Shown: positions 12,076-64,000 of the stretch, piece by piece | Layout: each line of letters opens with the position of its first letter | Numbering within the stretch: the first letter of the stretch is position 1 | Virus record (IMG/VR): IMGVR_UViG_3300005805_000047 | Coordinates: 32,001 to 96,000 of that record | Reading direction: 5' to 3' (one strand) | DNA: 64,000 nt | Origin: a virus | The notes under the pieces: model-generated | What the model was told of the DNA's origin: nothing | Seen by the model: the letters and a program-made list of their open reading frames with translations, nothing else | The model's database searches: none | Made by a program: the position numbers and the translations under genes

Positions 12076-12585
12076 ATGATGGACAACCTTCTTTTTAAGT
12101 CAGGCAACAGTGGTCAAGTAAACATTGATGAGGCGCAGGGCATAGTTGAGTGCTTTGTAGCTGGAATCGGAAACAAGGACTCTGTCGGCGATGTTGTTAT
12201 TTCTGGTGCATTTGCCAAGAGCCTTCTCAGAAGAAAACCACGAGTCGTTTGGGGGCATTCGTGGAATGATCCAATCGGTAAAGTTTTGGAAATGTACGAA
12301 GTTCCCATTGGGGACTATCGCCTACCAGCCAAGATGCGCAATGCAGGAATTGGCGGTCTTTATGCCAAGGTTCAGTTCAACCTAAATTCAGAAAAAGGCA
12401 AAGAGGCTTTTGCGACCGTTGCATTCTTCGGCGAAGATCAAGAGTGGTCTATTGGTTACAAAACCATCGATTCAGTTTTTGACCCAAACCTGCAAGCAAA
12501 CATTCTCAAAGAAGTTGAACTGTACGAAGTATCACCAGTTCTTCATGGCGCAAATCAACTAACTGGAACAATCTCAATTAAGGGC
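12076..12585 (+). other. HK97-type prohead protease domain (peptidase S78) of the giant protein
   Basis: GNKDSVGDVV..GAF..SL, WGH (His at 12256)...PIGK, WSIGY (Ser at 12448), LYEVSPV..GAN. Confidence 0.92.
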
Positions 12586-21500: not shown

Positions 21501-24500
21501 CCAACTTGAATGGGATGATTTTGAAGTTGACCTTGAAAGTCTGAGCATCGAAGAACGTCAAAAACTTATTGATGCGGTAAAAGAGAAAAAGAATTGGATT
21601 CTTGAAACAGCACAAAAAAATGCGAGAGAGTTGGGTTTTTCAGAAATTCCAAACGAAAGAGATCTTCAAAAAGCAATCAGGGACAGTAACGCTGCCGCCA
21701 GAAAGCCAATTGAGGATATGAGGAATGAAGTCGCTAAAAAGTTCCCGAAAGTTCGCGTCCCAGAGGAACCCTCAAAGAGATCTTCGCTTTATGGTATCCG
21801 TAATGAAAAGGGTCAATTCCTTGAACTTGAAGAGTTGGCCACTGGGTGGGCAGAAGAAATACGGGTTGCCAAAGCTGAATCAGCAGCGCAAAGAGCTGAA
21901 CTGAATGCCCAATTGAACCGCGGCGACCAAAATCTTGAGGATGGCTTCGCCTCAAGGTATTCACGGTACGAGGGTGGCTGGGATGCAGTTGCTGAGTCCA
22001 GTGAAATGCCAAACCGACCAGAACGAGCAACCCCAATGTGGGACGACCTGGATGAGGATCAGCAGAACGAGTTCATCCACGAAGTGGATTACGACTACAT
22101 GTACGACAACCACTTCGGTCTCGGTGATGATGGAATCGTTGAGGCCATGGAAGATGGAAAATATGACGATGCGATAAGCGAACACGCGCAAATGGTGTGG
22201 GACACAATCGCTGAAAGAAAAGAAAAGAAACGCTTGATTGATGCGGTTACTGCAACTGGGGTAGATCCAGAAATGGCAGGACCAATTGCCGATTACTGGT
22301 TCAACAGCGATGGCATACACGACAAGTACATGAAGAGGAGTAACGGCGACCTCGGTAAAGCAATGGAAGTTGCCTACGAGGATTATCTCAGTGCGTTGGC
22401 AGACATGCAGGAAGATGGCTTTGCCTCTCGCGGTTCTGCAACAAAACCATCCGTTGATGCTGAAACACAGAAAATTATTGAAGGTGCATCGCTTGGTCAA
22501 TTAGCAGAAATGATTCAGGACGATTTGGCTGATCAAGGAAAGGAAATGTACTTCGGAGCAGTTCCCTATATTGATGCCCTATCCACCATGGATTCCATGG
22601 ATGACCGATATGGCGCCGATTCAGCACAAAGTGTCGTTGCCTATGCGCTGAGCAACCTTCAGACCTACAAGGGCGCCAAGGCGCGAGCAATTAAGGCAGA
22701 ACTCAAGAAGCGACTTGATGAAAAAGTCAACAGAGATGGCTTTGCCTCGCGTTCAAGTGGCACAGATTGGGGTCCATTGGCTGGAGAGGTTGCTCCTGCA
22801 AGACCACTTAGGATTGAAACTGAATGGTTGAATTTTGAGGATTTAGACCCAGAAGAGCAAGATCAACTCATTCGAGATGGCATTGAGAACATTGACCGAG
22901 TGGCTCAACCAGACATTGACCTAGAAGCTGAGAGGGACTTCATAATTGAGGAATATGACCGTGAAGCCAGAGCGGCCCGATCCGATGCGGCCGAATCACT
23001 GCTGAAAGAAATATACGAACTCTGGGACCAAGATGCTGATGCCGATAATATTTTCCAAAAAAACGGCAACCTTGCCTACGCAGAAGAACTAGTCAAGAAC
23101 GGAGACTATGTTGAAGATTATGAACTTGCTGAAGCAAGAAATATTGTGGATGAAGTCAGAGAGCGATGGGAAGAGCGTAAAAAGAATTCAGTAGATGACG
23201 AACCCTCGGACATAGACGACGAAGACAGCGATGGCTTTGCTTCTCGTATGCCCAATGATGGCGAACGACTCATGAGGAGAGGGAATAGGGACTTCCTATC
23301 CGATGAGTTCTCGCCACGTGAATATAGGCAGGCAATGAGTGGGTTGGACAAGGTCAGGAATAACACCGGGTCTCCTGTTACCACAGAGGAGAATGCCGCC
23401 ATCAGGAAACTTGCCGACCTCTATCGCGCGAGACCAAAGACAACGCGAAATGAACGAGATGCAATCAACGATGTAGTAAACAGTCTTAATAGTTACAGAT
23501 CTCGCCGAAGTGGTAACGAAGGCTTTGCCTCACGCGGTGGTCGCACGGAACAGATTGATGTACGCAATTCCAGTGCCGTCGAGCAGGTCACCTATGATCC
23601 ATTGAAAGAGGAACTTCTCGTCGTCTATAGCGGCAACAGAGGATACATCTACGAGGGTGTCACTCGTGGCGAGGCAGATGCACTGATTGATGCCCCAAGT
23701 AAGGGGGGCGCAATCAATGGCATCAAGGCAACACACTCGTTCCGCAAGGCATCCGATTCGGATGTTATGGACTTTGATATTGATCCAGTTGCTGTCCGCA
23801 AGGCAGAAGTTGATGCAAACTGGGAAAGGCTTCCTAGTTCCGACAAGGAGCAATACCTCAGGCGCGCGACCAATGCCGGCATAGCCGACGGAACCGGTGA
23901 ATCTGCTGATGAACTGTTGTCCGCCGCCAAGTTGCGAGCCATGGACGACAGAGAACTGGCAATGCTTGAACGTGAAGCAATCGGCAGGGGTGAATCCTCA
24001 TCGCGCCGAATTGATGTCTCATCTAGCTCTGCGCTCAACTACGTGGACTACGACGAAAAGACGAGAACACTAAGTGTTGAGTTCCGTGGACGAGATGGCA
24101 ATGGGAATGGAACTCTTTACAACTACCAAGGTGTTGAACCAGACGTGGTTGACGAACTTGAGAACTCAGACAGTCGCGGTGCGACCATGCGTAGAATCAG
24201 GGACAATTACGAGTTTACGACGAGCGAGAGACTGCCACAGTCTGCATACGAGGGTCTTTCATCGCGCAGTGAGACGGACAGACTCGCCGCTTGGAAGCCA
24301 GTAAACCAAGATCTCAGAAGCCTGAGAGATCGAGTCAAAGGTAACGAAATCAATGATGGCTTGATTGGTATTGGGGATGCAGAGGTGAGGCCAGGTAGTG
24401 ACTTCTATAGGGCTCGTCGGAGAGCATACATGGGCCTCATGGATGAACTTGAAGAAATAATCGCCAATGCAAAAGAAGAGGGAAACCTTGACTTGGTTGG

Positions 24501-26772
24501 GCCGACAGAGAAGTCAAGGGGTCGATTTGAGAGGCTCATCAATGCAGGTGACTGGGCACAGGCCAGATTCCACATGATAGGAGAAATTGCCTCAGTTCGA
24601 GAATCAAGAGCCAGTGCAGAAAACGGCTTTGCCTCGCGGGGTGGTCGCAAGTCAACCGAAGAGTACAAAAAGATAGTTGACTCATTGCCAGATCCGACCG
24701 AGCGTCCGAACAAGAACAGATACATGCAGGCAGCCGATGGTGCTCGCAATGTTGTTGAGGACAGGTATGCACTTATTCATGCTCGTCGCAGAATAGCCAA
24801 AGAGATGGCAGAAGCAAACGGCGTGGAGTGGAAAGACGGCGTAGACATCTTTGATGTTACCAACGGCGATGATGATGATTTAGAAATCTTGATGGATCTT
24901 GACAACAGGATTGAAGAACTCAATAAGTACGTCACTGCCAATGACAAGGAATATAGGCGAGTTCGCAACATGGAACAGTTGGTGCTCCAGAAGGACTCCG
25001 AATTGTCTGACATCAAAGACGGAATAGACCTCGCACTTGAAGAGTACGAAATTACCGAACAAGACATTAGGGAATATTCGGGCGAAAATGCCAAGGAATG
25101 GTTCACCACAACACCAGAGGAAAATACAAACGAATTGGCAAAAAGCCTAAGAGGCAGATTGCTGGATCTGAATAATCATGAGGATGAAAACGACAATACT
25201 TCTCTCTCCAGAGAATATTCGGAAGATATCACCAAAGTCATAAAGTTAATCAGAAATGGAACGCCGGAAGATTTGCGTGAAGCCGCAGAAACAATGCAGG
25301 AAATTATCGGTAAGCAGAGAAGCGATTATCAAGACCGATACAAGTCCTACGAGTATGAAGGCGACGAACTAATTGACTCTGGTTACCGTTCAGTTCCATT
25401 TTTTGACGAGGAATCTGACCTTGACTTGGATGGGGAAGATGATTGGGACTACTCGCAAGAGATAGATGAAGAAGATGGAAGATTGAATGTAATTGCCGAT
25501 GAACTCTACGGTCCTGAGCCAAAGGACAAGGAGACGGTTGACGAGTACATGTCAATGAGTACGGAGGATGGTTTTGCTTCGGGTGGTCGTCGTCGCCCAG
25601 GTCGCCGCAATCAGGGTGGCAACGGCCAACGTATGGCTCCTACGACTCGCTATTCTGATGAAGATAGGCAGAACTTGGCCGATAGGAACATCCTTAGGTC
25701 TCGTAAGCGTCCTGCCAAACGGCGTCAACCACCGGATCAGTCTGAGTGGGAGGGTTTTGCCTCAACGAACCTAATTGACGATGATGTCAATGATATGGCC
25801 ACTGACCCGCGCGGTGCATTTGAGGGTGGCGAACACGGGCCAGGCAAAGATATCTCTCTACGGAAGATGTGGGAAAACATCCGTAGGTCAGGAGAGAATA
25901 ACGAGTGGTTTTCTGAATCAATGAGAGCAGAAGACTTGGCGAGAGATTTGAATATTCCTCGAAATGTCGCACAGGCACTACTTGATGCCAGACCACAATC
26001 TGGTCGACCTGAAATGTTCATTGACAATCCGTATCTGGCCGACACTCTTAGCCAAAGAATAGGCATGAGTAGAACTCGTTTGTTTGGATTTGACCCACTT
26101 AAGTATTACGACGATGAGGGCAACCCAGCATCCACACCAGAAGAGATTGATGCGGCCATAGAATCTGAGCGAGCACGACGTGCGGCGAGACTTGCCGCCC
26201 GAGAAGGTCGCAGAACCGGCAAGGGAGATCTCTATCGCGGTGAATCATCCAATGTTGATGTCCGTGACCTTGAGTCAAAACTCAACATAAAGTTGACCGA
26301 CGATAACGGGGATCTCCTTAAGCCAACTGCCCTTGAGAGAGCGGCACGAGATACTGGTCTGGGTTGGAGTCTTGAGAAGTGGCGTCGCATCCACAGCAGG
26401 GGTGGTGCGTTGACACCGCAAGATATTGAGAAACTTGTCGAGCGTGGGATTCTTGGCAAAGAGGCAATGCCGGAAAGGGGAGACCTTTCTTTTGGGGAGG
26501 TATTCCAGTGGCCAGGGTTTGCAGACCTAGGGTCAAGCAGAATCATTGATGCCCTTTCAGAAACCCTCGGATTGAGCAGGGACGAGATAATGAAACAGCG
26601 TCGAACAATCCAGCAAGCCCTTGCCCTTGCCAACAAGGGTCAGAGAAAGACAATATCCACAAGGAATTTACAGCAAGGGAAACTCAAATTGACCAGAGCC
26701 AAGATTGCAGAACTTGCCGAAAGACTTGGCCTTGATGCTTCTGAGTTTGACCGCTGGTTCAGTGGCGAGTAA
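12076..26772 (+). CDS. giant 4,898-aa prohead protease-fused multidomain polyprotein (S78 protease, ArdC, 6x KTSC, DUF2958, ~23 GFAS linkers)
   Basis: Uninterrupted ORF in the prohead protease gene position; domains recognised by motif, see sub-features. Confidence 0.9.
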   Translation: MMDNLLFKSGNSGQVNIDEAQGIVECFVAGIGNKDSVGDVVISGAFAKSLLRRKPRVVWGHSWNDPIGKVLEMYEVPIGDYRLPAKMRNAGIGGLYAKVQFNLNSEKGKEAFATVAFFGEDQEWSIGYKTIDSVFDPNLQANILKEVELYEVSPVLHGANQLTGTISIKGDEKGHMPIIPMPGMGATMMQEMPRIVVIAAPQDGANESSEGDPFAAGMSQELSQPDKMALQAELTERTGSKIEVMNATENTVVFRRTTQDGKASMYRLPYHREGDQYMFGKPEPYTANNPTPQPMQNIEQKPGAPVVVPNGGIAYRNDDQQEMLSMFSNENMVQSPWGKSDVSHLIELPESYMASAKDFISPVLRHHKLAARPNAKGIVIDGLLTANALDALQNAVKALGATLGQTSGNIGQAIGKIRDLAQTFNPYALDGDGDGFVQDGSAFQRPYIPIKKPGFDLPDVRGRKRSGDVLLDKPRSTPKLPKDKNTWTRAQRNEALLAGIVEPETREDVSFLANRRPENEGLAKYWDMSESDLTKEGNRLVNSRRQSTGAEKEKIDEELLKVSHEFQRRASYAETFGQEFVPPAKREVPEAMVPEADKPKPAKPGRTEAEGLASAGKVFDALNTDDLTDGKGYRKWEDLDDDEKLEMFQEVQYDYLYENYGNLGDDGLVEAMEDPRYDDEILEHAEMVYDKIKAKREEDGDMAADSAMDRAREEDGFGSRGEEPDADSLAQRDRERALDEQADAALDRALEGFIDKYGEDEFDKLTAEEQDILLEQGRDQARGLASSGSKLHTNTDVLMEIARRDGWRGGDKQPPVRSYRKAQEALDDWNKLSLEERNSLLDNDEPTIKEFVDALLKARDNRLAGIRSVQAERRNAERKRRAAEEKLKRQFARGDTSGVDTSALADYFPEDEYGNLGRSGREYVDAVLTNWAEMSQADRDKAIRDNRTIVEDPDSVVETLRDALSEYGYKNPKIAQFLDEAEAEADMLEMSGFESRGEGKFGSNPEDSKAAQIFDAILDKYWKMWGFDVPDADDKGWDEPFGFASLGNDEEVKQSKLDELVGGVRERLIAELETADPATWRPSWRNDSLPINPITGKPYRGFNAFWLMMRTSGENYRTGRFAGFNQLKARGAQVRKGEKGVPILRPQLVKKEDEDGNIKEFVVFRGATVFNIDQADGGDEALRAIPADLPESQRIAILDETLKELGVSVRTENITPHYNPDGDYISMPDFSKGTSPLEWTSTLAHEAVHWTGHKSRLDRPSLRDYSSDKKVRAYEELVAEIGSAMLLAAHGIDAPFRQDHAPYIKGWVSLLKDDPDALGNAFKDAQAAVNHMLEKSPNLRKLFGGLDNGKKAPDVDASTEVNVPVGASEGFASLHRVRTPGSEALAGVLYDDNSGELMVGFLKGKSWDDLGDDERIAWIDRVNAGRAEVGGYKRPLNDSEIDDLAREAYEDARDVGWYVYEGVTMEEVQELAAVKSKGRHINALKKLKKARKASDEDQFNFFGRSERVQDVAKTKQTDGFSSRGGNDNMIVERDPRTGYITISAMVTGDRGASEENRGTRRMRVIVAGGSIAEAKRNFRNRMKEDKVSFAGDSDGFASRGPAEPNEGLRRHKLMPVDIRERMPELYSTEDVDTEDKILAVKFFSPYSNWTWYGVEFDGEDTFFGYVEGFEKEWGNFSLSELAGAQLGNGIPAVERDMSFRPTKFEDLNGEGMPTITEDGFASGGSKRIGIEPQYNDPRWIDKTQQRILKQNTDWNSLSHDDQIDWANSFLDEYLRENEMGHGLSDVANGRRLTGRPDIDLLNYAEDAYSKMSDAHMRRRAQFGETDEGFSSVGRRTRRLGTKPSDAVDYVAWDPETESLFVAYKRGDGRSQMYVYEGVNSDEALAVENADSLGKAINAIKRAKNVRQATPEEVMGLADTDKREASETRKRLARLVLEETRDALKGMEVEFLSDTEINVSDGSEKMVRVSLDPDTLEFTVSKIRTIRGGREEPDDEELYDSESALSAGDVRTLTGLFMNDLQKDLDEESRLEREIDDARRELDMAGDAPGVENVDVTYSTALDAVDYNPSTQELRVSYKDGGTYIYEGVDRTAFEEFKSAPSKGRAMNDIKRAHPYRKDSEWTGGVDEDRGIEEFDVRGSEAVEKVTYDPSKEELTVVYSGGKGYVYTAVTREEADAVRSAPSKGRAINDVKRTHDVRKADAPVEERPTGSRGISPDVSKGKSFDERLELLEKLTQEEDDLADRLSGEFDGANPKGDYLTRGDAQGSATATSRKKYGTDAFKLLNDLFSSATPAEREKIREWFDGREKRMSAERAARTSRTIDPAPTAAPKMPTRKPPRGGKRVRNRNVVIEMEQGTLDEIMEAESKNITVDALRDAAGSVNGKYTKGPRKGKNRGSDTITVRDAETGELLHANEILLTSSVMRGSPTAANRKRGYIRARSYAGRQGHNITKDEGPSLRGEGRGMTDYDKRVYGLGSDEKNREYGLASRSSLDRLLTEPTPQEEVESFQRYLDSEYGEYFMDYTQMDDEELKKTLMQRYRMSRSEANATARQIRKDQDTLDELYMAADDAGFDSRGGRELVVPDEYRMYGVTKDALLDELYSEDLDEDEAERIADYWAQSDGLWDKYLDRAISNNEGNVLRAVSDAAQQAYEDYLSASADSLEQRRLDGFASRGQRLGEIRPMETAGNNWIESARLAEPLDIINLEDDDAREKFEEALIEAGVLDRINTSEYMDDVYERILVFAPDTDNGIMEAASGNQARNAPRTRYIVPTKDNKYAIVEFSGDYDGAPDGPPGYYPNYEVVDTAPSIGSAIRNVQKREQNDIGAPTGRAGGRTSEEGFTSSSYESDAEFLTRRAKEREDVLNAPVVKGEKSPLLDMSPYSAFDAFYGGGSKFIRRSEQTYDIYGPVSMPIAQQDSAFHTGFADQIVKDFSRSNLTIDELADRFDITPTQVQEVLLDAKANMLDLERLREKQKKTSLRSTEESDIRAGERVEKIFVGDRKHTDIPELTGEALARREQRLAHRRALAENDAIREKEGAALKELERTTEYRDAESNYSRAQTYNRQHEYWIGKGIELQENIDNLKETDDLSLLTTSALNGEDVLDILKEINEDWDLDFRDPTADWYENDYGTLVDWDGEEVSYDQLEWDDFEVDLESLSIEERQKLIDAVKEKKNWILETAQKNARELGFSEIPNERDLQKAIRDSNAAARKPIEDMRNEVAKKFPKVRVPEEPSKRSSLYGIRNEKGQFLELEELATGWAEEIRVAKAESAAQRAELNAQLNRGDQNLEDGFASRYSRYEGGWDAVAESSEMPNRPERATPMWDDLDEDQQNEFIHEVDYDYMYDNHFGLGDDGIVEAMEDGKYDDAISEHAQMVWDTIAERKEKKRLIDAVTATGVDPEMAGPIADYWFNSDGIHDKYMKRSNGDLGKAMEVAYEDYLSALADMQEDGFASRGSATKPSVDAETQKIIEGASLGQLAEMIQDDLADQGKEMYFGAVPYIDALSTMDSMDDRYGADSAQSVVAYALSNLQTYKGAKARAIKAELKKRLDEKVNRDGFASRSSGTDWGPLAGEVAPARPLRIETEWLNFEDLDPEEQDQLIRDGIENIDRVAQPDIDLEAERDFIIEEYDREARAARSDAAESLLKEIYELWDQDADADNIFQKNGNLAYAEELVKNGDYVEDYELAEARNIVDEVRERWEERKKNSVDDEPSDIDDEDSDGFASRMPNDGERLMRRGNRDFLSDEFSPREYRQAMSGLDKVRNNTGSPVTTEENAAIRKLADLYRARPKTTRNERDAINDVVNSLNSYRSRRSGNEGFASRGGRTEQIDVRNSSAVEQVTYDPLKEELLVVYSGNRGYIYEGVTRGEADALIDAPSKGGAINGIKATHSFRKASDSDVMDFDIDPVAVRKAEVDANWERLPSSDKEQYLRRATNAGIADGTGESADELLSAAKLRAMDDRELAMLEREAIGRGESSSRRIDVSSSSALNYVDYDEKTRTLSVEFRGRDGNGNGTLYNYQGVEPDVVDELENSDSRGATMRRIRDNYEFTTSERLPQSAYEGLSSRSETDRLAAWKPVNQDLRSLRDRVKGNEINDGLIGIGDAEVRPGSDFYRARRRAYMGLMDELEEIIANAKEEGNLDLVGPTEKSRGRFERLINAGDWAQARFHMIGEIASVRESRASAENGFASRGGRKSTEEYKKIVDSLPDPTERPNKNRYMQAADGARNVVEDRYALIHARRRIAKEMAEANGVEWKDGVDIFDVTNGDDDDLEILMDLDNRIEELNKYVTANDKEYRRVRNMEQLVLQKDSELSDIKDGIDLALEEYEITEQDIREYSGENAKEWFTTTPEENTNELAKSLRGRLLDLNNHEDENDNTSLSREYSEDITKVIKLIRNGTPEDLREAAETMQEIIGKQRSDYQDRYKSYEYEGDELIDSGYRSVPFFDEESDLDLDGEDDWDYSQEIDEEDGRLNVIADELYGPEPKDKETVDEYMSMSTEDGFASGGRRRPGRRNQGGNGQRMAPTTRYSDEDRQNLADRNILRSRKRPAKRRQPPDQSEWEGFASTNLIDDDVNDMATDPRGAFEGGEHGPGKDISLRKMWENIRRSGENNEWFSESMRAEDLARDLNIPRNVAQALLDARPQSGRPEMFIDNPYLADTLSQRIGMSRTRLFGFDPLKYYDDEGNPASTPEEIDAAIESERARRAARLAAREGRRTGKGDLYRGESSNVDVRDLESKLNIKLTDDNGDLLKPTALERAARDTGLGWSLEKWRRIHSRGGALTPQDIEKLVERGILGKEAMPERGDLSFGEVFQWPGFADLGSSRIIDALSETLGLSRDEIMKQRRTIQQALALANKGQRKTISTRNLQQGKLKLTRAKIAELAERLGLDASEFDRWFSGE
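15214..16100 (+). other. ardC: ArdC antirestriction module (ArdC-N/DUF1738 ssDNA-binding plus zincin-like MPTase) within the giant protein
   Basis: W..SW, PINPITGKPYRGFN, FNQ....GAQVRKGEKG, VFNIDQ, HEAVHWTGHKSRLDR (15808), YEELVAEIGSA. Confidence 0.9.
16201..24213 (+). repeat. six dispersed KTSC domains in the giant protein (~16201-16540 split, 17602-17780, 18232-18420, 18475-18660, 23554-23740, 24010-24213)
   Basis: Each matches S.A(V/L)..V.Y(D/N)....EL.V.(Y/F)..G..Y.Y.GV.......L..A.SKG...N. Confidence 0.85.
16912..17190 (+). other. DUF2958-like module within the giant protein
   Basis: VKFFSPYSNWTWY..EFDGED.FFGYV.G.EKEWG.FSLSEL...ERD..F.P. Confidence 0.8.
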
Positions 26773-28258: not shown

Positions 28259-31200
28259 ATGTCGCTGGGCGACGGGGAAAAAAACAAGGACATTCGCAAA
28301 AGAGCGAATGACTTTTTGTCATACGGTGTTTTGGGCTGCTGTCCCGGAGTTAAGGCACTTGGCAAGACAGTTGCCGACAAAAACTCTGACAAACAGCCAG
28401 AAAAGGCACTACCAAATGTAGAGAATAATGACGGCTATCGCTTTGACCCAAGTGGTAAGTGGGAGCCGGGAATGATGCTCAACCTGTTCCCCAATTCATC
28501 AAGTAGGGGCGCAATCAATGGCAAACCCAACTTTGGGTGGATTCCAGAGATGCCCGCGATGACACAGGATCAAACTGATCAAAGCTTCACTGAGAAATTA
28601 AAAAAACTTGCCGATGGACCACGCGTCGTTCAGGAAGTTTGGGAAGTTGATGACTCTGGCAATCCAACAAAACTTGTACAGACAGATGATCCAGATGCCC
28701 AAAATACTGAAAGCGACATAAAGGAAAAGGGTCTTGGCAGAACACTGAGAGAAATGAACCCCAACAACACCCTAATTGCAAGGGCGGCTAAACGGTTTGG
28801 GGTGTGGGTGGACGATTTAGGGAAATTTAGGTGCCCACCGGGAACACCAAATGCCAACCAATTCACAGATGAATTCGGCTCTACTTGCTTCGCCGTATCT
28901 GCATCGCAGATTGCGAATGCCGCCCAGGAGGGATTTGCATCGCTCGGTGCGTGGTGGAAGCGCAGGCAGCAATCCAAGCTCCCTTTTTATATAGACGAAT
29001 TCGGAAATGTAACCGAAAACATTGACATCGTCAGCGGACGACAGGAGTATCGTCGCGTATTTACTGGATCTCGAGCAAGAGTTCGTCAGCGAATGCAGGA
29101 ACTAGAGGACAATGTAAATGACCTGCTTCGCATTCATGGAATAACACCTTCAAGCAACAATAATGATGACCTCATTGCATTGATAGAGAAACTAAACCCA
29201 GATCTCAAGGGTAAGTTCATCACATTCAGGGATTCAACCATGATGAAGTTGACCCCATCGCAGCAGCAGAGGCTAAAAAGCCTTGGCATATCCGGTCAAA
29301 ATATTAGAGATTCAGAACGTGGATTCCTAATGAAGATTGCCGAAATGGCGCTTACAGACAGAGATCGATTCTTGCGGCTCGGTCTCGTTCAGGCGTCAAC
29401 GATAAGAATGCCCGACGGTTCAATTTCGGAAGCAATCACATTTGTGGCAAACCCAGATGCCCCACTTGGCGATGTCAAATACACCATAAAATATGACCCA
29501 ATTGAGATAGCAATAAATGCCAAGTCTCAACTCTTGGATGTTCTTGATCATCAGCGCCTAGGGTTAAGAACCACTGGGACTGCCAGTGATGAAGAAGCCG
29601 CAGATTTACTTCATCAGTTTGTAGTAAACGAGACACAGTGGGCAGGGGGTATGACGGCTTCCCTCGGGAAAAACCCATTTATGGCCAAGGGGACGCACAC
29701 GGCCATACATGAAATTGCCCACACAATTCAAGTAGACAAAATGATTGAAAAAGTAAAAGAACAGAAAGGTTCATCTGCTCGTTTATCCAAACTTACAAAC
29801 AGAGAAATTTTTGGCCTGTTGGCTGATGTTGGTGATGATATTGACATGGAGGATTTGGGTCTTGCTGTTTCTGACCTTGACCGAGTGGCATTTTTGGGTG
29901 GAAGATACGGAGCCGTAGAATACGGTAATAGAGGTGCAGTCAGTGAACTTTGGAAAGTTGAAGCAACTGCTGAACTTTATGCCTTGCGAGAAATGGGCGT
30001 AATTGAGGGCGACGACGTTGACAGAGCACTTGAATTCATGGATTCAATGCGTGGAACAAGAAGTCGAGAAATGCGCGAAGCAGGTAAAAAGAAAAATAGA
30101 AAAATAGTTGAGCGCGAAGCCACAAAGAGAAGACCAGCAGATGTTCCAGGTGCTAGAACGGCATCAAAACCCAAACGAGCAAAGTCGGTCAAAAGCCCCA
30201 AATCTGCGGCCACACTAGGGGATTCAATACTTGAAAAGTCTTTATCCAAGCTTGATTCGGAAGAAATTGAGGCACTTGAGAGAATTGGTGACCCTCGCAG
30301 TAAACAAATAATTTCTCTTGTTGATCCCAAAGGTTCCGAAAATGCGATTAAATCCATAGATTCCGGATATAAATTTGCCCGCAAACATGGTGCGGATTTG
30401 GACGAAATTGATGTAACTGATAGTTCTGCTGTTGAGCGTGTTGCCTACGACCCTAAACGCAAAAGGCTTTATGTCACCTACCGCGGCAAAGATGGTGAAT
30501 CCGGCAAGTCGTACTACTACAGAAAAGTAGATGAAGAAGTCGTCCTTGAACTCCACAAGTCAAAATCAAAAGGCAAGTCAATAAATGAAATAAAGCGCAC
30601 ACATGAAGTCATTGATATTGACAAAATTCCAGAAAAGGTTGACAAAAAAAATCCCGAAGAGGGGGACATTGCCTCACAGGTGCAGTTCAACCTCATACCG
30701 ACACTGACAGCCTTAGATAAGTCCGAAGTCGGGGAAGACATGAGGGTTGTAATTAGTGTCAACCCATCCAAGACCGGCGGCGAGATAGAAGATATCAAAG
30801 GGGTAACCACTGCCCGCATCTACCATGATGGAATATCACTCAACCCAGATGAGGTAGTTCTCGCCATTCCTTCTGATGCTCGCGGTATTCCGATTAAGGC
30901 AGGGGACTTTGACAGAGAAGGCACTGGATCAAACTCGCTGTTAATGATGCCACCAATGAAGGTTGCAGTAATTACGGACAAACAAGGAAAACGAGCAGAA
31001 CTGGTAGATCAGGAGTTCTCTAACACCACCCTGACCCGAATGCTGGATGAATGGCCTGCTGGTTCTGATGCAAAAGATGGTCGCCTATTCAATAGTTCAA
31101 GGAATAGGGTTGAGGAAATTGTCGCATCGCACATGGCGATGGGCGAGGGATCCGGAATGCTCCCAGATGGATCAACAACACCGATGTCTGCTCGTCGAAT

Positions 31201-32629
31201 AAGGACAAGAAATACCGATGTATTTGACCGCCACACAAGCAAGAGAAGTGCCACGACAAGACCGACAAAGTCCTACAGGGACAGTGTTTCCTCGGGGCGC
31301 ACTGGCTTCTCTTCAATGGGGACAATTGAAACCCCAGAAGAACGTAGTTTTGGAAGAATGTCCGCACATGTGGAGAATCTTCCCCCATTGCGAACCGATG
31401 CATCTATTGACCCAGAGGTTCAAAGAATAATCAAAGATGCAGGAGATCGGGATGTCTCTCAAATGATTGATGCGGCGGCTGCCGATTTCCATGAAGGAAT
31501 TGACAGAAGGCCACGACTACGGGTTTCTGATGACGAATTATCAAAAGTCATCTCAGACGGCGGTCGTTCATTTTCTGACCGAGGTCATTATTCAGCTGCT
31601 GAGCGAAACTATCAAACCCTTTATGGAATTCACCCAGATGTAGATGATATTGACAGGCCGGTATCCGGATACGTTGTTCATCCAGCACAAGACAGAGCAG
31701 CCCGAGATGCGATGCGACGGAAAGGTATTCAGGTTGGCGATGCACCAATAGAGTGGCCAAGTCAATCAAACCCCCATGGCGATGTTGATGCCGACGGTGA
31801 TATTGAGATAGTCCTCAAACCAGAGGTTTCTGGACGAACTGCTTATGGTTTCGGCTACGGAATTGACGAAAAGACCAGACCTGTTTGGATGAACTCATCA
31901 AATAACTCAGATATTGCCGATGCACTCGTTCACATGGACACAGTCAATGATCCAGAGGCATCCAAGACTCGAATGGTCAATGCATTGTCAGCTTTAGTTG
32001 ATGGAAATTATGGTTACTTCACAGATGTCTCCTCGGTAAAGCCGGCTGCTACGACCCAAAACGAGAAGACAGAGGACTTTATAAAACGCGTTGGCGAGCA
32101 TGCAAAGAATTCCAAACCACAACGTCTGGGTGCGCAGATAATGGGTGGCTTCGTAAATGAAGAAATAGCAGAAATTCGATACCCATGGTCAAAGGTGTCA
32201 AAGTCGTCATCGGATGTGGATATTTCCGATGTGGTAAATAAGGAGCCAATATCTGACAGACTTCGCCGTCTCGGCTTCACTGATGCAGAAATTGAATATT
32301 TTTACAAAGTGAATGGCGAAAGATCCTTGGATTACATATCGTCGGCGACAATGGCCAGCCTCAAGGATTACCGAAAGGCAATGGAGATCAAGAAGGACTA
32401 CGAAGCACGAGGCATTCCGGCAGTATCCTTCGCTCACCCAAACGGAATTGATCCCCTTGATATTTCATCGTATTCGGCTGACCCTAGCCCATCGACGACG
32501 ATTGAAAGTGCATTGGCGAGGGCAATCAATGAAGAAGTTGATGAACTCATAGAGAAAATGCTCAAACAAGTGCGCAAAACAAGGGGCAAACTCTGGGAAA
32601 TGAGGCCGAAAGCCGGTACTAGGACATGA
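28259..32629 (+). CDS. 1,456-aa multidomain head-associated protein (HExxH zincin, KTSC, degenerate ART-like and DUF3626-like regions)
   Basis: HEIAH at 29708, KTSC 30407-30606, EGFASL 28928, TGFSSM 31301, RPVSGY...IVLKPEV..RT...AQIMGG. Confidence 0.75.
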   Translation: MSLGDGEKNKDIRKRANDFLSYGVLGCCPGVKALGKTVADKNSDKQPEKALPNVENNDGYRFDPSGKWEPGMMLNLFPNSSSRGAINGKPNFGWIPEMPAMTQDQTDQSFTEKLKKLADGPRVVQEVWEVDDSGNPTKLVQTDDPDAQNTESDIKEKGLGRTLREMNPNNTLIARAAKRFGVWVDDLGKFRCPPGTPNANQFTDEFGSTCFAVSASQIANAAQEGFASLGAWWKRRQQSKLPFYIDEFGNVTENIDIVSGRQEYRRVFTGSRARVRQRMQELEDNVNDLLRIHGITPSSNNNDDLIALIEKLNPDLKGKFITFRDSTMMKLTPSQQQRLKSLGISGQNIRDSERGFLMKIAEMALTDRDRFLRLGLVQASTIRMPDGSISEAITFVANPDAPLGDVKYTIKYDPIEIAINAKSQLLDVLDHQRLGLRTTGTASDEEAADLLHQFVVNETQWAGGMTASLGKNPFMAKGTHTAIHEIAHTIQVDKMIEKVKEQKGSSARLSKLTNREIFGLLADVGDDIDMEDLGLAVSDLDRVAFLGGRYGAVEYGNRGAVSELWKVEATAELYALREMGVIEGDDVDRALEFMDSMRGTRSREMREAGKKKNRKIVEREATKRRPADVPGARTASKPKRAKSVKSPKSAATLGDSILEKSLSKLDSEEIEALERIGDPRSKQIISLVDPKGSENAIKSIDSGYKFARKHGADLDEIDVTDSSAVERVAYDPKRKRLYVTYRGKDGESGKSYYYRKVDEEVVLELHKSKSKGKSINEIKRTHEVIDIDKIPEKVDKKNPEEGDIASQVQFNLIPTLTALDKSEVGEDMRVVISVNPSKTGGEIEDIKGVTTARIYHDGISLNPDEVVLAIPSDARGIPIKAGDFDREGTGSNSLLMMPPMKVAVITDKQGKRAELVDQEFSNTTLTRMLDEWPAGSDAKDGRLFNSSRNRVEEIVASHMAMGEGSGMLPDGSTTPMSARRIRTRNTDVFDRHTSKRSATTRPTKSYRDSVSSGRTGFSSMGTIETPEERSFGRMSAHVENLPPLRTDASIDPEVQRIIKDAGDRDVSQMIDAAAADFHEGIDRRPRLRVSDDELSKVISDGGRSFSDRGHYSAAERNYQTLYGIHPDVDDIDRPVSGYVVHPAQDRAARDAMRRKGIQVGDAPIEWPSQSNPHGDVDADGDIEIVLKPEVSGRTAYGFGYGIDEKTRPVWMNSSNNSDIADALVHMDTVNDPEASKTRMVNALSALVDGNYGYFTDVSSVKPAATTQNEKTEDFIKRVGEHAKNSKPQRLGAQIMGGFVNEEIAEIRYPWSKVSKSSSDVDISDVVNKEPISDRLRRLGFTDAEIEYFYKVNGERSLDYISSATMASLKDYRKAMEIKKDYEARGIPAVSFAHPNGIDPLDISSYSADPSPSTTIESALARAINEEVDELIEKMLKQVRKTRGKLWEMRPKAGTRT

Positions 32630-36650: not shown

Positions 36651-36757
36651 TTGCGCTGTAAGCCTTTGATTATCTAGTATCTTGGTGAAGTATCGGTTGG
36701 GTGCTATACCTAAACTGGAATTCCATTCATCCAATCACTATCACAGAGGAAACCAAG

Positions 36758-38143
36758 ATGTCAGAAGACACAGGCAAGCTTCGCGAGTTGCAGTCAGCAC
36801 TCAGAGCGAAGATGGCAGAAAACAAGCAAATTGCTGACTCTTTCAAGGTCGAAGATGGCACAATCATCGTTGACCAAAAGAGGAAATCAGCATTCGACAA
36901 GAACATGGTCGAGATCAAAGAGCTCAAGGGCTTGATCGACGGCATGGAAGCACTCAACGAAGTGCGCGAGTGGGGTCAGGAAGCAAGCAGCCATTCGGTT
37001 GCCGCTGCCGCCGCGGCAGGTCACTCAGTTCCAACACGTCAACTTCAGAGCATTGGTGAAATGTTCTTGGCGTCAGATGAGTTCAAGTCACTCAATGGTG
37101 GACGCAACGGCGCAAACATGCCTGCCCCTTGGCAGGTCAAGGCGTCGCTCACGACCCACAACTACAACGTCAAGGACGTGTTCTCAGCGATGCCGTCCGC
37201 AGGAAACCTGTCGGGCTTCCAGCGCGGTGGCGGCCTCGGCGATTTCGGTTCGGTTCAGCGTGACCCGATGGTGGCTTCGCCAATGCGCACAAAGCGTGTT
37301 CGCGACCTCTTCCCAGTTCGTCGCACGACTGCTCAGGTCATTGAGTACTTCCGTCAACTCGGATTCACATCAATCTCAAATGCCAACTACGATGCAACAC
37401 TCGGTTACTCGACCGACAATGCCGCAGCGGCAGTTGCTGAGCGTGATGGCTCGACTTTCGGTGCAAAGCCTCAGTCGGCATTTCAGTTCGTTGGTGAGCA
37501 GGCTCCAGTTCGCACACTTGCGCACTGGGAAGCAGCACACCGCAACGTGTTGGCAGATGAACCGCAGCTAAGGTCAATCATTGACAATGAGTTGCTCTAC
37601 GGTCTCCGTCTCCTTGAGGACAATCAAATCCTCAATGGCAACGGCACAGGTGAAAACCTTAAGGGCGTTCTGCAGACAACTGGTATTCAGACTTATGACT
37701 GGAGCGACGGTGCATCTACGCCGGTTCCGGACACCAAGGCTGATGCGATTCGTCGTGCCGCAACCCTCTCGTTCCTTGCATACTACGAGCCTTCGGGCAT
37801 CGTGATGCACCCGAACGACTGGGAAGACATCGAATTGACCAAGGATGCGAACGGCCAATACTTGGTCGCCGTATCAGTGGCAATGGGTGGCGAGCCACGC
37901 GTCTGGCGTATGCCGGTAGTTGAGACCCCAGCAATCGCAGAAGGCACCGCACTTGTCGGTGCGTTCGGTACGGGCGCTCAGCTGTACGACCGTGAAGATG
38001 CAAGCATCCGAATTTCGGAACAGCATGCAGACTTCTTCATCCGTAACGCAATCGTGATCTTGGCAGAACAGAGACTTGCTCTCGCTGTCAAGCGCCCAGA
38101 AGCGTTTGTGAAGGTCTCCTTCAACGCAGCACCTGAAGCCTGA
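36758..38143 (+). CDS. HK97-fold major capsid protein
   Basis: GAGGA RBS before ATG 36758; coiled-coil delta domain; VRDLFP, AKPQS, VRTLAHW, L.D.PQL...I...L.YGL...ED.QILNG.G, MHPNDW, F.RN.I.ILAE.RLALAV.RPEAF. Confidence 0.95.
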   Translation: MSEDTGKLRELQSALRAKMAENKQIADSFKVEDGTIIVDQKRKSAFDKNMVEIKELKGLIDGMEALNEVREWGQEASSHSVAAAAAAGHSVPTRQLQSIGEMFLASDEFKSLNGGRNGANMPAPWQVKASLTTHNYNVKDVFSAMPSAGNLSGFQRGGGLGDFGSVQRDPMVASPMRTKRVRDLFPVRRTTAQVIEYFRQLGFTSISNANYDATLGYSTDNAAAAVAERDGSTFGAKPQSAFQFVGEQAPVRTLAHWEAAHRNVLADEPQLRSIIDNELLYGLRLLEDNQILNGNGTGENLKGVLQTTGIQTYDWSDGASTPVPDTKADAIRRAATLSFLAYYEPSGIVMHPNDWEDIELTKDANGQYLVAVSVAMGGEPRVWRMPVVETPAIAEGTALVGAFGTGAQLYDREDASIRISEQHADFFIRNAIVILAEQRLALAVKRPEAFVKVSFNAAPEA

Positions 38144-59712: not shown

Positions 59713-59722
59713 TATTTCCCAC

Positions 59723-61697: not shown

Positions 61698-64000
61698 ATG
61701 GCACTCATAGAGAACCCTTCCAACAAGGTGCTTGACGACCAGATACGAACTGCTATCTCAGTGGTCGCCCAGCAACTGAATACCAAAGCACGACTAGGTG
61801 CTGTTGCTCAGTCCTTTGACCCCGACGCAGTAGACGGTGATGGTGACGGCTTAGTTCAGGACGGTTCACCCTTTGAGAGACCAGCAGTAATAAGTGCCGT
61901 CAGCAAGGCTTCACAACGAATAGGTCAGTTGCTTTCCAAAGCAGGTAGAAGCAAGGAGAGTAGGGCAAGGGCATATCAGCGTAGATACTCAGGCATGTCA
62001 GCACAGGACATAGCAAAGGACGCAGTGCCTGACAGTTTTGAAGGTTGGGTCGCACTCGCTTATGAGAAGTTGAGAGTGGACAATCCAGATCTTCCACCGT
62101 TGTCACCAGACATGACACCAGATGAAGTGAAGCAAACGGTTCGCGCCTTAGAGGACTTTGTAGAAAGCGACCTTGTCTGGTTGATGACAGACGAGAAAGC
62201 GAAAGAGTTTAAGGAACTCAAAAAGACAGACAGAGCAGCCGCCTTTCGTTTAGCAGTAGACGGTGCATTTGACTTCTCGCCAGAAGCAGTCGCAAAAAAC
62301 AGAGAACTACTTGAACACGTTCTCACAACGAACCCACAATACAGAGCATTGGTGGATAAGTTCGGTCACCCATCCATATTCAGGTTTGGACCCGACCTAA
62401 ATAAGTCGCATCTCGCAGAAGGTATGTTCTCAGACTCAGCCGGTATGGGACTGTCGAAGATCGGCAATGTTCGCAAAAAAAGCAGACTACAACCCTTCAA
62501 CAGGGGACTTGGAAAGTGGTTCATGCAGGGAATCATGGAACCAGAGGTTGGTCACAGAAAGACGAAGCGTTGGCTCTCTGACAACACACCAGAAGGGCTA
62601 CTCGTACATGAGTATGGTCACTATTTAGTAGACGCAATCAAAGCACAACTCAGCGACGTCGACAATTATGAAAGAACGAAGCGTTGGCAAGCATTTCGTT
62701 TCGGTGCAGGGGCCGACTGGAAGGAAACCCTCACAGAAATCGGACACCCTGAGTGGTATGACCAATACGCCATAGAGAAACTCAAAAAGACAGAACGAAT
62801 AGAGATAACTCGCATTCGAAAGGATGTGCCAGACGAACTGCCGCACGTTCTCACGGCCTATGGTGAAACAGCACCAGCAGGGGCTTGGGCAGAAGCAATA
62901 GCGGCTCTGTTTGCCCACGAGGGTCGAAACAAAGACTTGGTTAGCCCCGGAATGGTCGAGTTGGTCAATGCCGCCCTTGAACTCCCAGAAGGAAGTGACC
63001 CCACAGAGGCTCTCTTGCCGGCCAGAAGTAAACGTGAGATTGTCCCAGACGGCTTCGCATCGCGCGGCTCGGTCATGGCGATCAACAACGAACGGGACTC
63101 ACGATACGGCGAGATACAGGATCCATACGAACTCACAGCCGAGGTTCTCGGAGATTTGGGCAAAGACGACCCGGTTGGACAAATGGTTCGCAAGTTGGAA
63201 GCCCTCAAAGACGACCCAGAACGATGGGACAAAGTCGAACCGAAGCAAAAGGCATCAATAGAGCGCAGTCTCAACCTACGTAAAGCCAACGAAGAGGAAG
63301 CCGCTCTTCTGGCCGGCGTGTTGATCAATGACCCGGCGTTTGCCGACATGATTCGACGTCACGGTATTTCTAACTACTACTTCGCCCAAGAGGACATGCG
63401 ATTCCCAATCGGGGACGGCACAGATGACGAAATTGACATACGTGGTTCTCTGTATGCAGGTTTCACGCCAGATGAAAGCGATGGTGGACGGTTCTGGCCA
63501 CCACGCATCGTGATTGACATGCTGGGACCCTCGAGCTTGGAGGAAGATCAGACGCTCGACGTTCCCATCCAGCCCGTCAGCGATGAAGAGATACGTAAAG
63601 CCAGAAAGGCCATGAACATACCCGGCGGAGTAACCAGAACACATGTGTCGAAATCGCATCAACACGTAATTCGACATGAGGGTGGACACTCGGTTCATGA
63701 TCTCCTCTGGGAACGTGTCCACCGCGGCGAAATAAAGGGTCGTCGAGCGCAACTCATCCGAGCTTACGGCACAAGCACGTGGGAAGAGTTCTACAAGGAA
63801 CTTGGCCGTCCCGACTTACTTCTTGAATACCAACGCTCGACCAAAGCCGCCAACACCATGGGTTACCCAGGCAGTCTCAAACCAGGCGATGAGATCGCCT
63901 TTATCGACAGCGGCTACGCATGGTCTAACCCACGTGAGTTTTTTGCTGAAACTTTCGCTTCATACACATCGTCAAACCCGGCGTATCGAGAGTTGATGAA
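61698..64000 (+). CDS. large multidomain protein, runs off window: DGDGDG tag, two HExxH zincin domains separated by DGFASRG
   Basis: Hand translation gives no stop over 767 codons from ATG 61698; HEYGH 62607, DGFASRG 63048, HEGGH 63675, YAWSNPREFFAETF near the end; absent from the ORF track. Confidence 0.88.
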   Translation, partial: MALIENPSNKVLDDQIRTAISVVAQQLNTKARLGAVAQSFDPDAVDGDGDGLVQDGSPFERPAVISAVSKASQRIGQLLSKAGRSKESRARAYQRRYSGMSAQDIAKDAVPDSFEGWVALAYEKLRVDNPDLPPLSPDMTPDEVKQTVRALEDFVESDLVWLMTDEKAKEFKELKKTDRAAAFRLAVDGAFDFSPEAVAKNRELLEHVLTTNPQYRALVDKFGHPSIFRFGPDLNKSHLAEGMFSDSAGMGLSKIGNVRKKSRLQPFNRGLGKWFMQGIMEPEVGHRKTKRWLSDNTPEGLLVHEYGHYLVDAIKAQLSDVDNYERTKRWQAFRFGAGADWKETLTEIGHPEWYDQYAIEKLKKTERIEITRIRKDVPDELPHVLTAYGETAPAGAWAEAIAALFAHEGRNKDLVSPGMVELVNAALELPEGSDPTEALLPARSKREIVPDGFASRGSVMAINNERDSRYGEIQDPYELTAEVLGDLGKDDPVGQMVRKLEALKDDPERWDKVEPKQKASIERSLNLRKANEEEAALLAGVLINDPAFADMIRRHGISNYYFAQEDMRFPIGDGTDDEIDIRGSLYAGFTPDESDGGRFWPPRIVIDMLGPSSLEEDQTLDVPIQPVSDEEIRKARKAMNIPGGVTRTHVSKSHQHVIRHEGGHSVHDLLWERVHRGEIKGRRAQLIRAYGTSTWEEFYKELGRPDLLLEYQRSTKAANTMGYPGSLKPGDEIAFIDSGYAWSNPREFFAETFASYTSSNPAYRELM

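Follow-up and report, generated by a model that had tools for sequence, protein, structure and literature searches.

A tagged polyprotein with phage-specific separators between its modules, a putative capsid cargo in a ~151-kb uncultured phage

Polyvalent proteins, as defined by Iyer et al. (2017, PMC5512222), combine 2 to 15 biochemically disparate conflict-type domains in one protein of a phage or conjugative element, and they were predicted to be freed by embedded peptidases, including assemblin-like ones; the cut sites, the targeting signal and processing in trans were undefined at that time. A prohead protease can process numerous head and ejection proteins in trans through a single motif, as gp245 of SPN3US does at AXE, and the propeptides of T4 direct proteins into the prohead core (PMC10052503). 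In herpesviruses, pUL26 is an N-terminal protease fused to the scaffold and equipped with self-cleavage sites (PMC4498786). In ASFV, the inner capsid is described as likely made of the proteolytic products of polyproteins pp220 and pp62 (PMC10308890). Here we analyse a gene whose product we propose to be a polyvalent protein cut at a phage-specific joint, an overall proposal for which we consider the balance to be about even.

The window, i.e., the whole stretch of DNA analysed, comprises 64,000 nucleotides (positions 32,001 to 96,000 of IMG/VR record IMGVR_UViG_3300005805_000047), and the source record is complete at 150,897 bp with direct terminal repeats, representing a ~151-kb uncultured phage. 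The frame near the end of the window, which the initial annotation had reported as free of stop codons, was borne out: it (locus L002) runs on the + strand from an ATG at 61698 to the window end at 64000 (767 codons) and continues to genome position 103156. The complete gene (genome 93698-103156; its end would be 71156 in window numbering if the window went on) encodes 3,152 amino acids (aa). The annotation had further claimed that this is a second polyprotein with the same tag and joint as one headed by a Peptidase_S78 domain, which is correct, the end of the latter gene lying 34.9 kb upstream. A tblastn search with aa 1-3000 against 50,697 GenBank phages gave no match, and a search for related loci with the single cargo protein as the query found none, while the same search with an alignment as the query did find them.

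The initial annotation had suggested counting linkers beyond the window, and there are six more [DE]-[GA]-FAS joints downstream, which makes seven joints and eight modules, the latter taken to fold independently. The first module (aa 1-450) carries the tag and zincin 1, the second (aa 458-809) zincin 2, and the third (aa 817-1338) zincin 3, with HExxH at aa 1091, and an extra domain. They are followed by a module (aa 1346-1744) with a DEDD/RNase_T exonuclease at aa 1483-1679, a module (aa 1752-2432) with a ParB/Srx-like domain that contains DGHHRW at aa 2146 and matches PDB entries 1vk1/5x0j (E 7e-7), a module (aa 2440-2638) that has no Pfam match and looks GNAT-like by eye, a module (aa 2646-2838) with a GNAT domain at aa 2756-2790, and a conserved helical tail (aa 2846-3152). 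The model of this C-terminal module reached a pLDDT of only 44 and gave no usable fold, and no convincing transmembrane segment was found in it. Of the tandem zincins annotated initially, both HExxH domains are real; the count has to be raised from two to three, with five further modules behind them. The three zincins group together by BLAST and are paralogous. Disparate domains (three zincins, RNase_T/DEDD, ParB/Srx-like and GNAT) are thus combined in one phage polypeptide with embedded peptidases, namely, the three HExxH zincins, to which the partner polyprotein adds S78 and MPTase-PolyVal.

Zincin 1 (aa 99-441; 61992..63020, + strand) was modelled confidently, and its H304, E305, H308, Y388, E390 and E399 are invariant in 22 sequences, E399, in WAEAIA, being the candidate third ligand. 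Its HEYGH (aa 304-308) occupies 62607-62621; the initial annotation had given 62607 for LVHEYGH, a position that belongs to the His codon, LVHEYGH itself beginning at 62601. In VIA-align its model matched clostridial neurotoxin light chains and the HExxH domain of ChlB, but weakly so (Z about 5). In zincin 2 (aa 472-781; 63111..64000, + strand, cut by the window end), HEGGH (aa 660-664; 63675-63689) lies where it had been placed, the downstream motif SGYAWSNPREFFAETF occupies aa 738-753 (63909-63956), and H660, E661, H664, Y740, E747 and E751 are invariant, giving the M34/ATLF pattern of HExxH plus a downstream YA..N..E.FAE-type motif with its Tyr and Glu. The zincin 2 model aligned with the catalytic domain of anthrax lethal factor (1yqy_A; Z 9.2, 177 residues aligned, rmsd 4.8), with PPEP-3 (Z 7.5) and with PPEP-2 (Z 7.2) in VIA-align, ~2 Z above unrelated rows; Foldseek with the two-domain model against PDB returned nothing at E<=0.001. 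The Pfam ATLF profile matched zincin 2 at E 4.4e-4 and 20.5 bits, below its gathering cut-off of 27.4, and matched 7 of 13 homologues (best E 2.4e-5). As modelled, zincin 2 resembles the lethal-factor/PPEP catalytic fold.

The separators of the cargo polyprotein follow the consensus [D/E]-[G/A]-F-A-S-x-G, with GFAS starting at aa 452, 811, 1340, 1746, 2434 (as EAFAS), 2640 and 2840. The first, DGFASRG (aa 451-457; 63048..63068, + strand), stands exactly at its annotated position, with G452, F453, S455 and G457 invariant in 13 homologues, and it falls in a stretch with pLDDT below 50 (aa 441-457) that has folded domains on both sides; throughout the modelled part (aa 1-815), the tag and two separators are low-confidence and unstructured amid confident domains. 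Among 29 metagenomic homologues (53-71% identical), five of the seven joints retain the GFAS core at 90-100%; the seventh does so at about 70-80% and the EAFAS joint poorly, and the flanks are variable and disordered. Joint codons vary at synonymous positions, and the conservation therefore concerns the peptide, not a DNA repeat. In the proteome of 47,625 aa, [DEN]GFAS occurs 19 times versus 0.15 expected (about 130-fold enriched), with 12 copies in a 4,898-aa protein, 1 in a 1,456-aa protein and 6 in the 3,152-aa protein, which also holds the one EAFAS, and with a position matrix derived from the 21 sites, scores over 12 bits are confined to the same three giant proteins. The whole-proteome scan that the initial annotation had called for therefore finds joints nowhere but in these three proteins, and its idea of a genome-wide system has to be narrowed: the joint and the tag are indeed common to both polyproteins, yet the joint is confined to three proteins and the tag to two.

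Neither end of the chain carries a separator, and the resulting n-1 copies for n modules fit separators, not per-module tags. Cassettes, moreover, are gained, lost or reordered exactly at these sites. That a protease encoded by the phage cuts the separators seems very likely to us. The motif could instead be a docking peptide of the encapsulin cargo-loading type or a flexible hinge in a chain that remains uncut: encapsulins build shells of the HK97 fold that recognise short G/S/L-rich peptides, the motif sits in disordered linkers, and a co-evolving capsid partner could also account for the genome-specific motif classes described below. However, a docking peptide would be hard to reconcile with termini that lack the motif, with its absence from every single-domain protein of the genome and with a protease at the head of one of its two main carriers, and a mere hinge would display neither 90-100% conservation of four residues nor a parallel switch in two unlinked genes, which leaves this alternative highly improbable.

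The 26-aa tag, AQSFDPDAVDGDGDGLVQDGSPFERP, was found precisely where annotated (aa 37-62; 61806..61883, + strand). Ten of its columns are invariant among 33 tags of different phages, and A.DGDGDG..QD..PF.RPA.I is kept even in cargo homologues of just 28-30% identity; in the model the tag is disordered (pLDDT below 50 at aa 31-54). A profile of the tag matched 169 clusters at E<=1e-10 and 867 at E<=1e-3, and phrog_7924 aligns with aa 35-63 of the cargo protein. Its carriers elsewhere include proteins containing a zeta-toxin, ADP-ribosyltransferase, NUDIX or kinase domain, a portal, an S78 protease, and small ORFs adjoining capsid, head-protease and tail genes. Tagged proteins of over 1,800 aa carry it nearly always inside the first ~110 residues, and in the five S78 polyproteins examined (G000-G004) it lies ~250-320 aa behind the protease domain; in the present phage, no separator-like site occurs between that domain and the tag. 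One tag-bearing protein also matches Pfam Excalibur. A match of a tag-bearing protein to Pfam DUF3721 was discarded, being due to a separate N-terminal motif and not to the tag. A tblastn search with a 35-aa tag query gave no match in GenBank phages, which, since low-complexity masking is possible, is no evidence of absence; the head region of Gordonia phage Gray, the nearest cultured capsid relative, contains no tag. We found no description of the DGDGDG tag or the separators in earlier literature on phage or polyvalent proteins.

We consider it fairly likely that the tag directs proteins to the head and that the cargo protein is carried in the virion. On a different account, the chain is processed at its separators but stays in the cytoplasm, where the products would serve anti-defence and DNA handling as early or middle enzymes and the tag would be a Ca2+-binding or other interaction motif with no part in packaging. 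The gene indeed follows the DNA methyltransferase genes, 35 kb from the head module, a position that makes late expression of the cargo gene an assumption. No sigma-70-like promoter was found for it, and a 9-mer search of the 300-bp upstream region revealed repeats at chance level only. A cytoplasmic role would also accord with DxDxDG being a generic Ca2+-binding loop, with the Excalibur match and with the lack of structure of the tag in the model. Nevertheless, the tag is common to the prohead-protease polyprotein, is elsewhere fused to a portal, to an S78 protease and to toxin-type effectors, and occurs on small ORFs within head modules, and a single chain of unrelated enzymes suits co-delivery better, separate genes being sufficient for cytoplasmic co-expression; we judge the cytoplasmic account quite improbable. 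Since the two polyproteins share one joint and one 26-residue tag, both probably enter the capsid and are split into individual proteins for injection.

The partner polyprotein (4,898 aa; 12076..26772, + strand) opens with the S78 domain (aa 19-165; 12130-12570; Pfam E 1.9e-9), carries the tag at aa 421-446 (13336-13413), and contains ArdcN, MPTase-PolyVal, five KTSC and DUF2958 domains by Pfam as well as 13 GFAS joints and weaker variants. The 1,456-aa protein (28259..32629, + strand) has an HEIAH motif and a KTSC domain, lacks the tag, and shows one strong joint, EGFASLG (aa 224-230; 28928-28948), and a weaker TGFSSMG. The head module starts with the portal protein (9985..11985, + strand; phrog_2662, E 1.6e-63). 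The major capsid protein (36701..38143, + strand; phrog_10, E 1.8e-64), whose alignment runs from residue 17, at profile position 255, onward, has its nearest cultured relatives in Gordonia phages (44-47% identical); the large terminase gene lies at 8441..9745 on the - strand (phrog_979, E 2.1e-106). The matrix scan detected no separator in the capsid protein or the portal, so the specificity of the S78 protease cannot be read from a classical substrate.

In seven related phages, the dominant joint class of the S78 polyprotein matches that of the unlinked cargo gene, and the class differs from phage to phage: GFAS in three, GLAS in one, G[FL]SS in two and xLGS in one, the last being G001, with 24 and 7 LGS in its two genes and no GFAS. 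A match of class across unlinked genes is the pattern that a shared trans-acting reader would predict. The separator may be viewed as a phage-specific code of a hydrophobic residue (F/L), a small one (A/G/S) and Ser. Among the metagenomic homologues there is also a possible GLRS/SLRSSG class.

Given that cutting happens, we somewhat favour the S78 protease as the enzyme predicted to perform it. Its domains are 68-84% identical among phages with differing separators, and being so little diverged they would imply that specificity shifts via few substitutions or that the whole class of F/L-small-Ser sites is tolerated. The alternative that the cargo's own zincins cut the separators, in the capsid or after ejection, with the S78 polyprotein cut in trans, is in our view unlikely, though several points speak for it: (i) every homologue invariably begins with the three paralogous zincins, whose HExxH...E sites are intact; (ii) the invariant F/L of the separator fits the hydrophobic P1' preference that is usual for zincins; (iii) across phages whose separators differ, the S78 domain is nearly constant, in contrast to the zincins, which fall to 25-33% identity; and (iv) the same role was proposed for zincin peptidase domains in polyvalent proteins by Iyer et al. 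(PMC5512222). Against the zincins, separator class does not track their divergence (G004 and G008 have GFAS like the present phage, although their cargo is only about 27-28% identical), cutting before encapsidation would leave just the tagged first module to package, and release of the S78 polyprotein would hang on a gene 35 kb off, whereas prohead proteases self-process (PMC10052503). The relative divergence of the S78 and zincin domains, tried as a guide to the enzyme that reads the separators, does not discriminate between them. On the S78 side itself, it counts against this enzyme that the invariant F/L equally suits a zincin S1' pocket and that three zincins are always present in the cargo protein.

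With S78 as the preferred protease, the proposed course of events would be as follows: (i) the cargo protein would be synthesised late in infection; (ii) its N-proximal DGDGDG tag would carry it into the assembling prohead; (iii) inside the prohead, the S78 protease would cut both polyproteins at their separators, the cargo protein in trans; and (iv) the pieces would be ejected with the DNA and act early on host nucleic acids and proteins. A broader and more tentative reading, which we hold to be possible though less likely than its contrary, is that a large group of uncultured phages uses two portable codes, a general head-loading tag and a private separator for each phage protease. If true, the DGDGDG tag would serve hundreds of clusters, including toxin-type effectors, portals and proteases; the private separators (GFAS, GLAS, GFSS, LGS and possibly GLRS) would provide an orthogonal protease/site pair per lineage; and effector cassettes could be added or exchanged between the separators of any tagged gene, wherever it lies in the genome.

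If confirmed, the proposal would establish true polyprotein processing in tailed phages, arming the capsid with many injected enzymes, and would offer both a rule to predict injected effectors from sequence and short peptides with which to load and release cargo in phage capsids. The modules, among them lethal-factor-like peptidases, an exonuclease, a ParB-like domain and acetyltransferases, are candidate early host-takeover or anti-defence activities.

The locus shares features with several known systems and coincides with none of them. Like the internal proteins and Alt of T4 with gp21, and like the substrates of gp245/gp175 in SPN3US/phiKZ, it combines a targeting peptide, one head protease acting in trans and ejected cargo, as proposed here. 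The proteases of T4, SPN3US and phiKZ, however, belong to another family, S77, and cut after Glu, whereas the head protease here is a Peptidase_S78 and not of the gp21 family with its [LI]xE sites (the T4-type CTS class), and the separator follows no C-terminal Glu rule. Their substrates mostly shed one propeptide, in contrast to the split into 8-20 modules proposed here, and the present tag is internal or N-proximal, 26 aa long, of the DxDxDG type and not followed by a cut site. As in herpesvirus pUL26 (PMC4498786) and HK97 gp4/gp5, the protease of the S78 polyprotein forms the start of a longer assembly protein and would free itself at sites within it; those systems process only scaffold or capsid and have no effector cargo and no second polyprotein elsewhere. 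Assemblins cleave between Ala and Ser, and the HCMV protease assay substrate (...Asn-Ala-Ser-Ser-Arg...) resembles F-A-S-R. The mature HK97 capsid protein starts S104-L-G-S (K103|S104), so that an S78 enzyme acts there immediately next to a hydrophobic-small-Ser triplet, which offers a circumstantial lead. Phage D3, considered as a second S78 data point, was dropped, its record calling the protease ClpP-like.

As in MuF-fused toxins and M34/ATLF peptidases, zincin 2 with its HExxH...Y...EFFAE and lethal-factor/PPEP fold would be cargo on a putative head-incorporation element; unlike in MuF toxins, that element would be a 26-aa peptide and not a folded domain, and Pfam matches of the cargo protein, 12 homologues and the partner include no MuF/SPP1 gp7 domain. 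ASFV pp220/pp62 are an analogy only, namely, virion-core proteins of a dsDNA virus made as polyproteins; the protease, the motif and the cargo are unrelated, the ASFV polyproteins being cut by a viral protease at a short Gly-Gly-X motif to give structural proteins in place of enzymes. The closest likeness is to the polyvalent proteins (PMC5512222), which are likewise giant phage chains of zincins, ParB-like domains, nucleases and acetyltransferases with predicted delivery alongside the DNA, and whose namesake MPTase-PolyVal and ArdC-N domains are held by the partner gene. In that work, however, the assemblin-like peptidase is C-terminal, and the separator motif and, as far as we found, a targeting tag are not described, whereas in the present phage the S78 domain stands at the N terminus and belongs to another gene than the cargo. 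To the prediction made there, the present locus adds a grammar, comprising a conserved tag, n-1 separators at the module borders, cassette exchange at those borders and parallel switching of separator class, in which the modules are bounded by a conserved phage-specific peptide that is shared in trans.

The virus record is complete (150,897 bp, with direct terminal repeats; the window covers bases 32001-96000), and the stop-free frame described in the initial annotation opens at ATG 61698, has no stop up to the window end and runs on to genome base 103156, giving a cargo protein of 3,152 aa. The features assigned to it all lie where they had been placed: the DGDGDG tag (aa 37-62, 61806-61883), the first zincin motif HEYGH (aa 304-308, 62607), the linker DGFASRG (aa 451-457, 63048), the second zincin motif HEGGH (aa 660-664, 63675) and the SGYAWSNPREFFAETF motif (aa 738-753). 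A third HExxH is found at aa 1091, and Pfam matches RNase_T (aa 1483-1679), GNAT (aa 2756-2790) and, below threshold, ATLF (aa 733-771). A profile of 13 cargo homologues matched ParB/Srx-fold serine kinases (E 7e-7, motif DGHHRW), a PolC-type exonuclease and, for zincin 3, lethal factor (E 0.004-0.006). In the AlphaFold model of aa 1-815 (pLDDT 76), which has two confident domains, structure comparison aligned zincin 2 with the catalytic domain of anthrax lethal factor (Z 9.2) and with Pro-Pro endopeptidases (Z 7.2-7.5), whereas zincin 1 reached only Z about 5, against other zincins; the metal-site residues are all invariant in 22 sequences, at identities down to 28%. The three zincin modules are paralogues, since they cluster together by BLAST. 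The C-terminal module is conserved, its structural model being too poor to use.

The head module comprises the large terminase (8441-9745, minus strand), the portal (9985-11985), the 4,898-aa S78 polyprotein (12076-26772), a 477-aa ORF (26822-28255) without any match in a PHROG search, a 1,456-aa protein (28259-32629) and the major capsid protein (36701-38143). In the S78 polyprotein, Peptidase_S78 (aa 19-165) comes first, followed by ArdC-N, MPTase-PolyVal, five KTSC domains and DUF2958. The cargo gene lies 34.9 kb downstream of this gene, with two DNA methyltransferase genes (phrog_67 and phrog_359, 57623-60710) directly 5' of it on the same strand. The 300 bp ahead of the cargo ORF (61399-61697) are filled with short GT/CA words (GGTAGTG, GTAGTAG, GGTATCAC twice in tandem, CACCACAC); this region holds no Shine-Dalgarno-like sequence, and no sigma-70-like promoter was found for the gene. 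The closest cultured capsid relatives are Gordonia myophages (44-47% identity). In the nearest of them, Gray (MK279853.1 9233-42684), an RNA ligase, a VIP2-like ADP-ribosyltransferase toxin and a 971-aa HTH protein are separate genes in the interval from portal to maturation protease, where no DGDGDG tag is present; they may be unfused counterparts of the polyprotein cargo.

The initial annotation had treated DGFASRG as part of a cargo grammar working in trans, and extension of the frame, the first check it had proposed, revealed six more such joints downstream: DGFASSG (aa 810), EGFASMG (aa 1339), EGFASTG (aa 1745 and 2639), EAFASTS (aa 2433) and EGFASRG (aa 2839). The linker also proved far from random in the proteome, as a six-frame scan found 19 copies of [DEN]GFAS, 12 in the S78 polyprotein, one in the 1,456-aa ORF and six in the cargo protein, against 0.15 expected in 47,625 aa from proteome composition; single variants are EAFAS in the cargo protein and FGFAS in the S78 polyprotein. 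With a matrix from 21 joint sites, scores above 12 bits were reached only within these three proteins, and the capsid protein, the portal and every other ORF gave no match. The joint Gly, Ala and Ser are encoded by four, four and five different codons, so selection acts on the peptide. In the 1,456-aa protein, which lacks a tag and combines a HEIAH zincin motif with a KTSC domain, a single joint is strong (EGFASLG, aa 224-230) and another, TGFSSMG (~1014), is weak. The sole GFAS in any long ORF beyond the three polyproteins is GGGGGGGAGFASSGGG, within a glycine run of a 1,623-aa ORF that precedes the window on the minus strand (genome 24043-28914); it has the look of a coincidence in Gly-rich sequence.

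The low-confidence, unstructured stretches of the aa 1-815 model are the tag (31-54) and both joints it includes (441-457 and 784-815). Joints are kept at the same borders in 29 metagenomic homologues of 53-71% identity; five joints retain the GFAS core at 90-100% and the seventh at ~70-80%, conservation of the EAFAS joint is poor, and the residues ahead of the joints vary freely. When every homologue was cut in silico at its joints and the pieces were clustered, the architecture A-A-A-B-C-[variable cassettes]-E-F emerged, in which the presence or absence of cassettes D and G-P falls exactly between joints; module order is altered in one distant homologue. For n modules the chain has n-1 joints, neither end carries one, and the joints behave as separators.

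A cargo homologue of 33% identity has no GFAS and carries seven [AP]LGS at equivalent borders. Scanning IMG/VR with an alignment query gave more than 150 related stretches, and seven phages allowed the cargo gene to be read together with the unlinked S78 polyprotein. The joints (S78 polyprotein/cargo gene) are GFAS in the phage under study (13/6), G004 (11/5) and G008 (13/5); GLAS in G002 (9/10, with no GFAS in either); G[FL]SS in G003 (6/4, with GFAS 1/5, the cargo gene being mixed) and G006 (4/3, the cargo gene being cut by the contig end); and xLGS in the complete 140-kb G001 (24/7, GFAS and GLAS being absent from both). The joint changes in step in two genes tens of kilobases apart, as a common phage-encoded reader would predict, and we consider it a probable phage-specific code shared in trans. 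All these classes follow the pattern F/L, small (A/G/S), Ser. Five distant tagged giants of 2,300-3,750 aa (P0142, P0145, P0167, P0176 and P0181) repeat GLRS or SLRSSG, not GFAS, which may represent an additional class of separator in which Arg takes the small position.

The two tags of the genome align along 26 residues. The tag sits ~250-320 residues behind the protease domain in the five S78 polyproteins compared (G000-G004); in that of G000, the phage under study, the intervening sequence holds no separator-like site. Run against 1.84 billion representatives, a tag profile (35 columns, 33 tags) matched 169 clusters at E<=1e-10, and 867 at the looser limit of E<=1e-3; the weaker matches may include generic DxDxDG loops. 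Carriers above 1,800 aa nearly always have the tag within the first ~110 residues, and many carriers are proteins of 80-200 aa with one or two tags; among 49 mid-sized carriers, five have Zeta_toxin and seven ADP-ribosyltransferase domains, others have NUDIX, kinase or GmrSD_C domains, and portal and Peptidase_S78 domains occur in one each. Small tagged ORFs adjoin capsid protein, head protease or major tail genes. This distribution fits a putative head-incorporation signal, and the DxDxDG core of the tag suggests a Ca2+-binding loop. Two tandem tags ~26-30 residues apart occur in proteins of 168-221 aa (L049:7638-8219, directly 3' of the capsid protein gene; L058:1511-2014; L081:750-1412). 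At L077:5510-7122, a 95-aa ORF ending in a tag lies downstream of a 458-aa head maturation protease, in a different frame and overlapping it by ~50 nt; this ORF could be a gene of its own or extend the protease through a frameshift.

The cargo protein is a polyvalent protein by the definition of Iyer et al. 2017 (PMC5512222), who compared such proteins with polyproteins and pointed out that some carry an assemblin-like peptidase at the C terminus; that article describes no separator motif and does not use the word "linker", and no targeting tag or trans relation was found in it. Our literature search found no earlier description of the tag or joints. Cutting, packaging, timing and delivery of the cargo are what we infer from sequence throughout.

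S78 is favored as the joint-cutting protease for several reasons: (i) S78 is the enzyme with known activity within proheads; (ii) the S78 polyprotein bears the same tag as the cargo; and (iii) one N-proximal tag loads the whole chain only if cutting comes after encapsidation. In addition, (iv) prohead proteases process numerous internal proteins in trans, with one motif as the cut site, as in SPN3US (PMC10052503). Alternatively, a zincin would read the joints, whose F/L would suit a zincin S1' pocket as well; counting against S78, its domain barely varies (68-84% identity; L087-L090, window 12076-13600) across phages with different joints, and no classical substrate bears the joint. The cargo polyproteins of these phages are only about 25-33% identical; the protease head is far more conserved than the attached part, and such divergence patterns do not discriminate between S78 and zincins. 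The scaffold domain of the HK97 capsid protein has 102 residues (PMC12749128). On balance, S78 remains the reader that we favor. In HK97, the type S78 system, the maturation cleavage, at K103|S104, is followed by the sequence S104-L-G-S, and herpesvirus assemblin, of the same clan as S78, has an assay substrate reading ...N-A-S-S-R....
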